Under the pieces are notes generated by a model that saw only the letters and a list, made by a program, of their open reading frames with translations, searched no databases and was not told the DNA's origin. DNA of 64,000 nt from Escherichia coli (GTDB lineage: Bacteria; Pseudomonadota; Gammaproteobacteria; Enterobacterales; Enterobacteriaceae): NCBI RefSeq assembly GCF_003334405.1, contig NZ_QOWM01000007.1, one strand, 5' to 3'. A program made the translations under genes and the position numbers. Below are positions 40,430-48,566 of this stretch, piece by piece; within the stretch, counting starts at the first letter, position 1; every line of letters starts with the position of its first letter.

Positions 40430-41677
40430 ATGGCGGGACCCGTTTTGTATCAGGACCGCGCCATGAAACAGATAACCTTTGCTCCCCGTAATCACCTGCT
40501 CACCAATACCAATACCTGGACGCCCGACAGCCAGTGGCTGGTATTTGACGTGCGTCCTTCTGGCGCGTCGTTTACCGGCGAGACCATTGAGCGTGTGAAT
40601 ATCCATACCGGCGAGGTCGAGGTTATCTATCGCGCGTCACAGGGCGCACACGTCGGCGTGGTGACCGTTCATCCGAAGTCAGAGAAATATGTTTTCATCC
40701 ACGGCCCGGAAAATCCTGATGAAACATGGCATTACGACTTCCATCATCGGCGCGGAGTGATTGTTGAAGGCGGCAAGATGAGTAACCTTGATGCGATGGA
40801 TATTACCGCGCCGTATACGCCAGGAGTGCTGCGCGGCGGCAGCCATGTGCATGTCTTTAGCCCGAACGGTGAAAGGGTGAGCTTTACCTATAACGACCAT
40901 GTAATGCATGAACTCGATCCGGCGCTGGATTTGCGAAACGTCGGTGTTGCTGCGCCGTTTGGCCCGGTCAACGTACAAAAGCAGCATCCGCGTGAATACA
41001 GCGGTAGCCACTGGTGCGTGCTGGTGAGCAAAACCACGCCCACGCCACAGCCTGGCAGTGATGAAATCAATCGTGCTTATGAAGAAGGATGGGTAGGAAA
41101 TCACGCGCTGGCATTTATTGGCGACACACTTTCGCCAAAGGGCGAGAAAGTGCCGGAGCTGTTTATCGTTGAGTTACCGCAAGATGAAGCTGGCTGGAAA
41201 GCGGCAGGTGATGCGCCGTTAAGCGGAACGGAAACAACCCTGCCCGCGCCACCGCGTGGCGTCGTGCAGCGACGTTTAACCTTTACCCACCATCGGGCTT
41301 ATCCGGGGTTAGTCAACGTCCCGCGCCACTGGGTGCGCTGTAATCCGCAGGGTACACAAATCGCGTTTTTAATGCGAGATGATAACGGCATTGTGCAACT
41401 GTGGCTTATCTCGCCACAGGGCGGCGAGCCGCGCCAGTTAACCCATAACAAAACGGATATTCAGTCTGCATTTAACTGGCATCCGTCAGGAGAATGGTTG
41501 GGCTTTGTGCTGGATAATCGAATTGCTTGTGCCCATGCGCAAAGCGGCGAGGTTGAGTATTTAACCGAACACCACGCCAATTCACCTTCTGCGGACGCCG
41601 TGGTCTTCTCGCCGGATGGTCAGTGGCTGGCGTGGATGGAAGGCGGCCAGCTGTGGATCACCGAAACTGATCGCTAA
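40430..41677 (+). CDS. yidR: Uncharacterised beta-propeller-like protein YidR
   Basis: Long ORF ending 41677; start ambiguous among ATGs at 40427, 40430 and 40463 (the last has an AGGA upstream). Confidence 0.8.
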   Translation: MAGPVLYQDRAMKQITFAPRNHLLTNTNTWTPDSQWLVFDVRPSGASFTGETIERVNIHTGEVEVIYRASQGAHVGVVTVHPKSEKYVFIHGPENPDETWHYDFHHRRGVIVEGGKMSNLDAMDITAPYTPGVLRGGSHVHVFSPNGERVSFTYNDHVMHELDPALDLRNVGVAAPFGPVNVQKQHPREYSGSHWCVLVSKTTPTPQPGSDEINRAYEEGWVGNHALAFIGDTLSPKGEKVPELFIVELPQDEAGWKAAGDAPLSGTETTLPAPPRGVVQRRLTFTHHRAYPGLVNVPRHWVRCNPQGTQIAFLMRDDNGIVQLWLISPQGGEPRQLTHNKTDIQSAFNWHPSGEWLGFVLDNRIACAHAQSGEVEYLTEHHANSPSADAVVFSPDGQWLAWMEGGQLWITETDR

Positions 41678-41678
41678 A

Positions 41679-42011
41679 TCAGTTATCAGGCATTCTGGCC
41701 GGTGGAATAACCGCATTGGTGGCTTGCGCGTTGGCTTCGCTTTTTTCAACGCGCGAGCGCACCGAGCTGTCTTTGCGGAACACATCCCACGGCAGTAAAA
41801 GCGTGTCCATCACAGCGGTAAACGGCATATCGAGAATCGCCAGCGACTTAGTGCCCCAGTTGGTTTCATCGTCGCCAATCATGGTTGCGCTGGCGCGGGT
41901 GCCGGGATACGTTCCTTCTTTCCCTCCGGTATGGGACATCACGCTGGAGCATCCTCCGAGTAATGTCATTCCGCTGCATATCATGAACGCTAACAACACA
42001 TTTCTTATCAT
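41679..42011 (-). CDS. yidQ: Lipoprotein YidQ
   Basis: ATG at 42011 (MIRNVLLAFMICSGMTLLGGCSS...) gives 110 aa with lipobox LLGGC; track ORF to 42086 is a 5' extension. Confidence 0.85.
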   Translation of the reverse strand: MIRNVLLAFMICSGMTLLGGCSSVMSHTGGKEGTYPGTRASATMIGDDETNWGTKSLAILDMPFTAVMDTLLLPWDVFRKDSSVRSRVEKSEANAQATNAVIPPARMPDN

Positions 42012-42185
42012 AATAAATTCATCTGTTGATCGTGGGTGTTGGCCTGATGAGTTATAGCGATCCCTTGCTGAAAATAACATCATCATTACGTCGCACTGTG
42101 GCGGCTATCGCACTTTAACGTTTCGTGCTGCCCCCTCAGTCTATGCAATAGACCATAAACTGCAAAAAAAAGTCCGCTGATAAGG

Positions 42186-45840: not shown

Positions 45841-46135
45841 CTCTAGATCTCTTTTTTGCCTGCAAGCCCGGGTAATGCGCACACAAGTTCTGCTTAATCG
45901 ATTGAAAAAACATCTTTTTTTTAAAGATGTGTTCGATGCTGTGTACCTGTGCTCACAGAGGTCTACTTTTTCGCGAAAACGTAGATCTCTACCGCCCAAC
46001 GAAAAGCATGAAAGCGATCACGAATCCCATTGGGTCGTCATGTTCTGCCGATCGCATCTTCCTATCCTCGCTCCAGGCCTGCCGCATAACCAATCAGGCT
46101 TCCTACTTACAGAATTGAGAAAAGAGGATGTGGAA

Positions 46136-47752
46136 ATGCTCAGTCAAATTCAACGCTTTGGCGGCGCGATGTTCACGCCAGTGCTGCTGTTTCCCTTCGC
46201 CGGGATTGTGGTGGGTCTTGCCATCTTGCTGCAAAACCCGATGTTTGTCGGGGAATCACTGACCGATCCGAACAGTTTATTCGCGCAAATCGTACACATT
46301 ATTGAAGAGGGCGGTTGGACGGTATTCCGTAATATGCCGCTGATTTTTGCTGTCGGTTTACCCATTGGCCTTGCTAAGCAAGCGCAGGGGCGTGCTTGTC
46401 TGGCGGTGATGGTGAGTTTCCTGACCTGGAACTATTTCATCAACGCGATGGGAATGACCTGGGGAAGCTACTTCGGCGTCGATTTCACTCAGGACGCGGT
46501 GGCAGGTAGCGGTCTGACAATGATGGCCGGGATTAAAACCCTCGATACCAGCATTATCGGCGCAATTATCATTTCCGGCATTGTGACGGCGCTGCATAAC
46601 CGTCTGTTCGATAAAAAACTGCCGGTTTTTCTCGGCATTTTCCAGGGGACGTCTTATGTGGTGATTATCGCCTTCCTGGTGATGATCCCCTGTGCCTGGC
46701 TGACGTTGCTCGGCTGGCCAAAAGTACAAATGGGGATTGAATCTCTGCAAGCGTTCCTGCGTTCGGCGGGTGCACTTGGGGTCTGGGTTTACACCTTCCT
46801 CGAACGTATTCTGATCCCAACCGGTTTACACCACTTCATCTACGGACAGTTTATCTTTGGTCCGGCAGCTGTTGAAGGCGGCATTCAGATGTACTGGGCG
46901 CAGCATCTGCAAGAGTTCAGTTTGAGCGCCGAGCCGCTGAAATCGTTGTTCCCGGAAGGCGGTTTTGCCCTGCACGGTAACTCAAAAATCTTTGGTGCCG
47001 TGGGCATTTCTTTAGCGATGTACTTCACTGCCGCACCGGAAAATCGGGTAAAAGTGGCGGGCTTGCTGATTCCCGCAACCTTAACCGCCATGCTGGTGGG
47101 AATTACCGAACCGCTGGAATTTACCTTCCTGTTCATTTCACCGTTGCTGTTTGCGGTACACGCCGTGCTGGCGGCCTCAATGTCGACCGTAATGTATCTC
47201 TTTGGTGTGGTGGGCAACATGGGCGGAGGTCTGATTGACCAGGTTTTACCGCAAAACTGGATCCCGATGTTCAGCAACCACGCGGATATGATGCTGACCC
47301 AAATCGCCATTGGGTTGTGCTTTACCCTGCTGTACTTCGTGGTTTTCCGCACACTGATTCTGCAGTTCAACATGTGCACGCCGGGACGTGAAGATGCGGA
47401 AGTGAAACTCTACTCAAAAGCCGAATACAAAGCCTCGCGAGGCCAAACCACCGCGGCAGAGCCAAAAAAAGAGCTGGATCAGGCTGCCGGTATCCTGCAA
47501 GCCCTGGGCGGGGTCGGCAATATCTCCAGCATTAACAATTGCGCGACGCGTTTACGTATTGCACTGCATGACATGTCACAAACGCTGGATGACGAAGTCT
47601 TTAAAAAGCTGGGAGCGCACGGCGTCTTCCGTAGTGGCGATGCCATTCAGGTGATCATTGGTCTGCATGTATCTCAGCTGCGTGAACAGCTCGATAGCTT
47701 AATTAATTCTCATCAATCAGCAGAAAATGTTGCCATTACGGAGGCAGTATAA
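46136..47752 (+). CDS. glvC: PTS glucose-family EIICB (GlvC with fused GlvB-like IIB domain)
   Basis: ATG at 46136 with aagagga 8 nt upstream; 538 aa continuous frame; C-terminal IIB motif NNCATRLR; track ORF from 45875 is a stop-free 5' extension. Confidence 0.8.
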
Positions 47753-48566
47753 TGACCAAATTCTCAGTGGTTGTCGCAGGCGGTGGAAGCACCTTTACGC
47801 CAGGCATCGTGTTGATGCTCCTGGCGAATCAGGACCGTTTCCCGCTTCGTGCACTGAAATTTTATGATAACGATGGTGCGCGGCAGGAAGTGATTGCCGA
47901 AGCCTGTAAAGTCATCCTTAAAGAAAAAGCGCCGGACATTGCGTTTAGTTACACCACCGATCCTGAAGTGGCATTCAGCGACGTTGATTTTGTCATGGCG
48001 CACATCCGCGTCGGCAAATACCCGATGCGCGAACTGGATGAAAAAATCCCGCTGCGCCACGGCGTTGTTGGTCAGGAAACTTGCGGACCCGGCGGAATAG
48101 CGTACGGCATGCGTTCCATTGGCGGCGTCCTGGAACTGGTGGATTATATGGAAAAATATTCACCAAATGCCTGGATGCTCAACTACTCCAACCCGGCAGC
48201 CATTGTCGCAGAAGCCACGCGTCGTCTGCGCCCGAATGCGAAAATCCTCAACATCTGTGACATGCCAATCGGTATTGAAAGCCGGATGGCGCAAATTGTT
48301 GGGCTGCAAGATCGCAAACAGATGCGCGTGCGCTACTACGGCCTGAACCACTGGTGGTCGGCGATATCCCGCAGTTTCAGAAAGGGTTAATGAGTCAGCA
48401 AGTGGCGGTGGAAAAACTGGTCGTGGACGCCTGGGAACAGCGTTCATATCAGCACCTGTGGCAGGCGATTACGTTGTCGAAAACGGTACCGAGCGCCTCG
48501 GTCGCCAAAGCTATTCTGGATGAGTTGCTGGAGGCCAACAAAGCGTACTGGCCAGAGTTACGTTAA
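47752..48566 (+). pseudogene. glvG: glvG remnant: 6-phospho-alpha-glucosidase (GH4) with internal deletion and frame break
   Basis: N-terminal 212-aa frame (47752..48390, Rossmann [12 protein letters not shown]) and C-terminal 70-aa frame (48354..48566) in different frames; about 815 bp total, far short of a typical GH4 gene (~440 aa as I recall). Confidence 0.8.

Follow-up and report, generated by a model that had tools for sequence, protein, structure and literature searches.

The window analysed here, a 64,000-nt stretch of Escherichia coli DNA (contig NZ_QOWM01000007.1), contains four consecutive convergent gene pairs, dgoT/cbrA, yidR/yidQ, yidE/yidP and glvG'/yidL, whose coding sequences meet tail to tail. 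We found that three of these pairs share exactly 4 nt at their stop codons, that the fourth is separated by a single base, and that each of the four + strand genes is followed by a stable hairpin inside the coding sequence of its partner. The junctions are most probably ordinary minimal tail-to-tail overlaps produced by neutral extension of open reading frames (ORFs) in a compact, cassette-built region. Reciprocal regulation of the pairs is possible, and no observation made here requires it. The overlap phenomenon, convergent excludons and termination by collision have all been described before, and a published catalogue already contains two of the four pairs. The junctions, placed from the sequence and the RefSeq annotation, are as follows.

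CTAA at 39298-39301: 4-bp overlap of dgoT (+ strand, 37964-39301) and cbrA (- strand, 39298-40362)
TAA-A-TCA at 41675-41681: 1-bp gap between yidR (+ strand, 40463-41677) and yidQ (- strand, 41679-42011)
TTAA at 45124-45127: 4-bp overlap of yidE (+ strand, 43466-45127) and yidP (- strand, 45124-45840)
TTAA at 48563-48566: 4-bp overlap of glvG' (+ strand, 47752-48566) and yidL (- strand, 48563-49456)

An earlier note on this DNA had claimed 4-bp stop overlaps for dgoT/cbrA, yidE/yidP and glvG'/yidL and a 1-bp separation of yidR and yidQ, and both claims were borne out by the sequence and by the RefSeq gene ends annotated in E. coli records of the same or nearly the same sequence. The dgoT stop TAA occupies 39299-39301 and the cbrA stop, CTA on the + strand, 39298-39300; yidR ends with TAA at 41675-41677, followed by the single spacer A at 41678 and the yidQ stop (TCA) at 41679-41681. 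The range of 41677-48566 that the note gave for all the pairs was mistaken for one of them, as the dgoT/cbrA junction sits 2.4 kb outside it. All eight junction genes have orthologues in many Enterobacteriaceae genera, and glvG is a pseudogene in the window.

Stop codons of + strand genes finish with A or G, and those of - strand genes, which appear on the + strand as TTA, CTA or TCA, start with T or C; two opposed stops therefore cannot share just 1, 2 or 3 bases. Opposed stops first overlap at 4 bases and therefore require [TC]TA[AG], that is, CTAA, TTAA, CTAG or TTAG. The three overlapping pairs belong to this YTAR class, with the tetramers CTAA, TTAA and TTAA in the order listed, and yidR/yidQ, as a 1-bp-spaced near-overlap, lies outside it. 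Lillo and Krakauer (2007; PMC2174442) described the same four tetramers and 4 bp as the modal length among 58 convergent overlaps in E. coli, and found a rho-independent terminator within the partner's coding sequence in about 20 of the 58. As far as PMC3887535 summarises the work of Kingsford, Delcher and Salzberg (2007), the lengths of convergent overlaps follow from genes extending at random in the 3' direction until the next stop is reached. The overlaps in the window resemble these known cases in geometry, tetramers and the combination of one drifting and one fixed stop (PMC2174442, PMC3887535), and in having terminator-like hairpins within the partner's coding sequence, where PMC2174442 reports terminators. 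There is no essential difference between them; the local feature is that three such overlaps and one 1-bp junction are consecutive.

Gene ends and cassettes across Enterobacteriaceae

The comparison set comprised 80 Enterobacteriaceae loci with 10-kb flanks from a YidE scan, in which orthologues were mapped by tblastn and each match was extended to its stop codon. The gap between yidR and yidQ was 0-2 bp in 64 of 76 species (range -11 to +5), with varying stop codons and last residues, and the abutment is ancient. An AT-rich inverted repeat (AACTGA...TCAGTT) across the two stops was seen, as judged by eye, in Escherichia only, and was taken as chance.

The other three junctions vary. YidE ends with ...LFWG[IMV][GS] and the stop throughout the compared loci, and the YidP stop lies at -33 relative to yidE in 22 species and elsewhere at -44, -54, -21, -6, -4 (4 species) or 0 to +34; in Dryocola and Buttiauxella, an intergenic GC hairpin stands between the two genes. 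The dgoT/cbrA junction is -4 in five species and -40 in E. albertii and E. whittamii, where the overlap is 40 bp because a synonymous change of a dgoT Gly codon (GGC to GGA or GGG) destroyed the cbrA stop. At glvG/yidL, the junction is -4 in C. braakii, K. oxytoca, two Kluyvera and Pseudocitrobacter, all of which have an intact glvG of 440 aa, and -7, +7, +22, +23, +45 or +82 in other species. YidL gains a tail of 10-11 aa (DRHPxDAGxxx) exactly where the junction is -4, and species with spaced junctions have no such tail. Taken together, dgoT, yidR, yidE and glvG on the + strand have a fixed C-terminus, and cbrA, yidQ, yidP and yidL on the - strand carry a variable tail.

Several of these genes come and go. 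Only Escherichia and some Citrobacter carry cbrA, as an insertion that separates dgoT from yidR, and in most genera yidR starts 52 nt past the dgoT stop. The genera that lack cbrA (loci L034-L092, for example L038) have a conserved hairpin with a 12-bp stem, TACCCTGATGCG...CGCATCAGGGTA, 15-45 nt past the dgoT stop and before yidR, at the place that cbrA takes up in Escherichia and Citrobacter. The yidP-glvCBG cassette is patchy among genera and within Escherichia, and so is yidL-yidK. In Escherichia whittamii, Escherichia sp. E1V33 and E. coli E69 (L016, L018 and L019), yidP-glvCBG and the YidL tail have been deleted, and the 3' remnant of yidP, with its hairpin, is intergenic DNA between yidE and a shorter yidL, 74-89 nt past the yidE stop. 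In about 1,150 of the 5,421 E. coli genomes that match the 8-kb query, coverage stays below 80%, which may reflect deletion of yidP-glvCBG or insertion sequences (IS).

Citrobacter, Klebsiella and Kluyvera have an intact family-4 glycosidase of 440 aa, with which the glvG pseudogene was compared.

48338-48352, + strand: breakpoint of the glvG deletion, with an internal loss of ~0.5 kb and a shifted frame; the live ORF ends at 48390

The live ORF of glvG' thus ends 176 nt before the overlap, and only an out-of-frame remnant of the native C-terminus reaches it. The idea that the glvG'/yidL overlap is an accident of the frameshift was rejected, as the intact 440-aa glvG ends at the same 4-bp overlap in five species. 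Indeed, because the native last 74 codons and the stop persist in E. coli in another frame, the overlap was inherited rather than created by the decay of the gene.

Hairpins inside the partner genes and the transcripts that reach them

For each of the eight genes, the lowest minimum free energy (MFE) of a 40-nt segment within 90 nt past the stop was compared, post hoc, with that at random places in the same window. The following hairpins lie past the stops of the + strand genes.

39353-39380, + strand: dgoT hairpin, AAAGCCGGTGC...GCATCGGCTTT then TTTTTAC, 52-79 nt past the stop, within the last ~27 codons of cbrA
41718-41763, + strand: yidR hairpin without a U-tract, 41-86 nt past the yidR stop, within the yidQ coding sequence
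45135-45169, + strand: yidE hairpin, CCGGGTGGAGT...ACTCCACCTGG, 8-42 nt past the yidE stop, within the last 15 codons of yidP
48569-48603, + strand: G-U-rich glvG hairpin, 3-37 nt past the glvG stop, encoding the 10-11-aa C-terminal tail of YidL

The dgoT hairpin (-18.4 kcal/mol, z score -4.35; -13.5 on the - strand; empirical P 0.05) has an 11-bp stem followed by UUUUUAC and resembles an intrinsic terminator. The yidR hairpin reaches -28.7 kcal/mol (z score -5.07; -24.4 on the - strand), with a lowest 40-nt MFE of -21.8 kcal/mol (empirical P 0.013), and is conserved only partly in other genera. The yidE hairpin (-24.2 kcal/mol, z score -4.68, empirical P 0.0035) has no U-run. Its conservation extends to 32 species, where 83% of cells are paired against 24-50% in slid controls, and it survives as an intergenic remnant where yidP-glvCBG has been deleted. 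Only one of its pairs covaries (CG 12, UG 12, UA 5, GC 2), which is suggestive and is confounded by the coding constraint on YidP. The glvG hairpin (-20.6 kcal/mol on the + strand, -11.0 on the - strand; empirical P 0.022) has a degenerate T-run in E. coli (GUAUUCUUU); its homologue is intergenic in Enterobacter sp. JUb54 (L056) and carries a canonical T-run in K. oxytoca. In species with a -4 junction the same hairpin encodes the YidL tail, so that the yidL frame continues across the putative glvG terminator as far as the first available stop.

Each of the four hairpins gains 4-10 kcal/mol in stability when folded as + strand and not as - strand RNA (z scores -4.3 to -5.1). DNA inverted repeats were detected at three of the four, the glvG hairpin relying on G-U pairs. 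No unusual hairpin was found within 90 nt of the stops of cbrA, yidQ, yidP and yidL, where the lowest 40-nt MFE was -9.7 to -11.3 kcal/mol (P 0.56-0.73), and the Fisher combined P, computed post hoc, was 5e-5 for the four + strand genes and 0.88 for their partners. Across species, and without correction for GC content, hairpins at least as stable as the 5% level in E. coli were present at 92% of loci for glvG, 60% for yidE, 57% for dgoT, 38% for yidR and 0-33% for the partners. Such a hairpin occurs at 3 of 12 gene ends of six other 4-bp overlaps in E. coli MG1655. A consensus terminator scan reported none of the four embedded hairpins, because strong T-runs are lacking; it returned only the ibpB terminator (43286-43306), which is the sole canonical intrinsic terminator within 37.5-50 kb, and weak sites. 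The view that these junctions leave no room for terminators therefore holds only in part: there is no intergenic DNA, and yet stable hairpins stand 3-86 nt past the stops of all four + strand genes, within the codons of their partners.

Published transcript data bear on three of the four pairs. In the ExcludonFinder analysis of MG1655 (PMC12288877), yidQ-yidR and cbrA-dgoT are among 165 convergent excludons, each listed because its transcripts overlap in no fewer than 50% of 58 transcriptomes. For 146 of these pairs the authors report terminators overlapping the transcription unit of the neighbour, and they describe excludon pairs as more syntenic than other pairs. Overlapping transcription is thus a common feature of convergent genes. 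The list does not contain yidE-yidP or glvG-yidL, and it includes most of the other tight junctions that we sampled (amiD-ybjS, ybjD-ybjX, yicG-ligB, asnA-viaA, cueR-ybbJ and ycaM-ycaN). Because nearly every expressed, very short convergent spacer in our sample is listed, the listing reflects geometry and not demonstrated regulation. The window is the reverse complement of MG1655 ~3.85-3.91 Mb, and the MG1655 coordinate equals 3909739 minus the window coordinate. With this conversion, a Rho termination region reported by Adams et al. in 2021 (PMC7815308, supplementary file 2) as 'antisense yidP' at MG1655 3864468 (-), with a score of 3.97 and P 2e-13, falls just past yidE.

~45271, + strand: Rho termination region 144 nt beyond the yidE stop, converted from MG1655 3864468 (PMC7815308)

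Positions in that study are resolved to a neighbourhood only, as it used 800-nt comparison windows. It reports no Rho region at the cbrA/dgoT junction, and its Term-seq tables, searched at the coordinates of yidE/yidP and cbrA/dgoT, list a 3' end at neither. The same data place a Rho region 'antisense emrD' at MG1655 3854772 (-), window ~54967, downstream of yidF, where yidF and emrD converge with a gap of 7 bp; beside yidE/yidP, this gives the window a second pair at which Rho halts read-through into the opposing gene. The junction genes are not mentioned in the SMRT-Cappable-seq supplements. Expression in one dataset, given as normalised counts (baseMean), is low and uneven between partners: yidE 880, yidQ 885, dgoT 55, yidP 46, cbrA 34 and yidL 14.

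As there is no intergenic DNA, transcripts must run into the partner gene. A lack of read-through, which the earlier note had named as the outcome that would tell against it, is contradicted for three of the four pairs by the excludon listing of two (PMC12288877) and by the Rho region past yidE (PMC7815308). Its expectation that convergent transcription collides is supported as far as entry into the partner goes, but read-through from yidE is stopped by Rho and not necessarily by collision.

Bidirectional terminators resolved by head-on collision of RNA polymerases (RNAP) were reportedly described by Ju, Li and Liu in 2019. Wang et al. (2023; bioRxiv 10.1101/2022.10.23.513370) described bidirectional terminators that act through RNAP collision at convergent genes in E. 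coli. All four of our pairs likewise have a hairpin at the point of convergence, which for yidE and yidR lacks a classic U-tract as in those studies. Their terminators, however, are intergenic and Rho-independent, whereas the hairpins here lie in partner coding sequence and read-through from yidE is Rho-sensitive, which argues against counting yidE/yidP among collision-type terminators. Convergent excludons are neighbours with 3'-overlapping transcripts (Toledo-Arana and Lasa, PMC7154746; PMC12288877), and two of our pairs are named as such, with yidE-yidP and glvG-yidL unlisted; a search for antagonistic expression of the partners or RNase III processing in published data found neither for any of the four. 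Finally, the regions antisense to yidP past yidE and to emrD past yidF match the suppression of antisense read-through by Rho (PMC7815308), although the cbrA/dgoT junction has no reported Rho region.

We propose that when a gene beside a convergent neighbour loses its own stop, or inserts there, its frame would continue to the next stop, very often one that uses the TA within the stop codon of the neighbour. The + strand genes would have kept their 3'-end hairpins in the process, and these now lie within the last 3-28 codons of the partner. Transcription of the + strand gene would then enter the partner antisense and end at or after the hairpin, by Rho for yidE, as published, and possibly by intrinsic termination for dgoT, as its U-run suggests. 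The hairpins may thus serve dgoT, yidR, yidE and glvG as elements for 3'-end formation, termination or pausing, and the transcripts of cbrA, yidQ, yidP and yidL would run antisense into the + strand gene until stopped by Rho or collision. The whole arrangement would have arisen by neutral change, as cassettes were inserted or deleted and stops were lost, and since antisense entry into the partner is forced, the overlapping transcripts would be a by-product.

With this origin, the region is a clear textbook example of the way in which convergent genes end up with a common YTAR tetramer, and it has little importance beyond housekeeping. The absence of intergenic space is not the absence of a terminator, as 3'-end hairpins can persist within a neighbour's C-terminal codons. 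In annotation and engineering, it matters that deleting or recoding the 3' end of cbrA, yidQ, yidP or yidL would take away what is probably the 3'-end element of the partner (dgoT, yidR, yidE or glvG, respectively).

Frequency of the run and competing explanations

The background was taken from every convergent junction between two coding sequences in 675 kb of MG1655 annotation (14 blocks, tables read by eye). Nine of the 95 sampled junctions are 4-bp overlaps, three of them the focal ones and the others yicG/ligB, amiD/ybjS, ybjD/ybjX, purR/punR, yfeH/ypeB and yrbL/mtgA; a mechanical ORF census found the same 4-bp sites. When the four focal pairs are excluded, 4-bp overlaps amount to 6 of 91 (6.6%, confidence interval 2.5-13.8%), a gap of at most 1 bp occurs in 14 of the 91, and the median gap is 46 bp. 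In simulations with 704 convergent pairs per genome, the number reported for E. coli, at least three 4-bp overlaps among four consecutive junctions arose somewhere in 41% of genomes, and the same run with a fourth junction of at most 1 bp in 8%; these frequencies span 0.3%-98% across the confidence interval of the rates. The run of tight junctions, which was noticed post hoc, is at most mildly unusual. The recurrence described in the earlier note is therefore present, but at a background of 6.6% and with 8-41% of simulated genomes containing such a run, it is not demonstrably above chance. The overlaps amiD/ybjS (TTAG, MG1655 905740-905743) and ybjD/ybjX (TTAA, 918128-918131), at locus L009, are likewise close together, 12 kb apart.

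Several points weigh against an origin by neutral ORF extension. The constancy of the yidR/yidQ junction (0-2 bp in 84% of the 76 species) may be greater than expected from simple drift, and selection could account for it. The compensatory pair in the yidE hairpin alters YidP amino acids, which hints at selection on the structure. The hairpin statistics are post hoc with a null drawn from this window only, and the cross-species MFE thresholds are uncorrected for GC content. The background rate is based on just 91 junctions read by eye. In addition, the tails of the - strand genes may reflect extension or shortening, as the changes are not polarised on a phylogeny.

The junctions might instead be convergent excludons maintained by selection, in which read-through from one gene would repress the other, either through colliding RNAP or because RNase III cleaves the duplex RNA. 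The partners would then be expressed in a mutually exclusive way, for example with operon transcription silencing the regulator yidP or yidL of the adjacent cassette. This reading, which corresponds to the reciprocal regulation raised in the earlier note, we consider unlikely. Although yidQ-yidR and cbrA-dgoT belong to the published E. coli excludome (PMC12288877), yidE-yidP and glvG-yidL do not, and membership tracks geometry, as noted above. The yidR/yidQ abutment has been retained across 76 species, and a higher synteny is reported for excludon pairs (PMC12288877); at yidE/yidP, dgoT/cbrA and glvG/yidL, however, the overlap varies in length (-4 to -54) or is replaced by a spacer, the cbrA and yidP-glvCBG cassettes are present in some genomes and missing from others, and the window carries glvG as a pseudogene. 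Antisense transcription from yidE into yidP does occur and is limited by Rho (PMC7815308), and collision-driven bidirectional termination is established in E. coli, but expression of the pairs is low and lopsided in the one dataset. If excludons with a regulatory effect were nonetheless the right explanation, four examples would be added to the ~165 catalogued in E. coli.

A second possibility is that the region is a mosaic of sugar-utilisation cassettes with divergent regulators, in which each insertion or deletion trims the flanks to the coding ends, so that the run is non-random. The restriction of the cbrA insertion to Escherichia and some Citrobacter and the patchiness of yidP-glvCBG (among genera and within Escherichia) and of yidL-yidK fit such compaction, as do the short convergent gaps inside the window (7, -4, -4, 1 and -4 bp) and in the flanking MG1655 sequence (asnA/viaA 4 bp, yicL/nlpA 3 bp). 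The yidR/yidQ junction, however, is ancient and marks no cassette boundary, 4-bp overlaps elsewhere lie in non-mosaic contexts, and the simulation finds the run compatible with chance. We therefore regard regional compaction as improbable.

Only a very slim chance is given to the idea that the four tight junctions form a selected transcriptional-interference chain, in which the carbohydrate or stress modules dgo, yidR, yidE and glv would dampen the regulators or neighbours behind them (cbrA, yidQ, yidP and yidL), and in which the yidR/yidQ abutment and the embedded hairpins would be kept for that purpose even at the cost of amino acids in the partner. An annotation artefact of mis-called genes or stops was rejected by the orthologue comparison and is almost certainly not the answer: glvG' is indeed annotated across a frameshift, with the real ORF ending 176 nt before the overlap, but the stops are unambiguous ends of long ORFs, orthologues of the eight genes across Enterobacteriaceae end at the same or nearby stops, and the intact glvG of other genera ends at the same overlapped stop.

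Other observations in the window

The 8-kb query around the junctions matches 5,421 of 5,426 complete E. coli genomes. The window differs from MG1655 by 5 mismatches in 25 kb, and the strain is K-12-like and not MG1655 itself. One difference lies at window position 47240, codon 369 of the ORF at 46136-47752, where the window has CAG and MG1655 the amber codon TAG (3862499). With Gln at this codon, glvC and glvB form one intact 538-aa phosphotransferase system (PTS) IICB gene here, where MG1655 annotates two fragments.

Among the compared loci, L034 (CACSKA010000004.1) is titled 'Chryseobacterium sp. 18061' and contains an enterobacterial dgoT-yidR-yidQ-ibpAB-yidE-yidP-glv-yidL region. Its YidE is 85% identical to that of E. 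coli, and the assembly is probably mislabelled or contaminated. Between the yidR/yidQ and yidE/yidP junctions, the 5' untranslated region of ibpA contains a ROSE_2 RNA thermometer at 42251-42323 on the + strand (Rfam RF01832, 100 bits).

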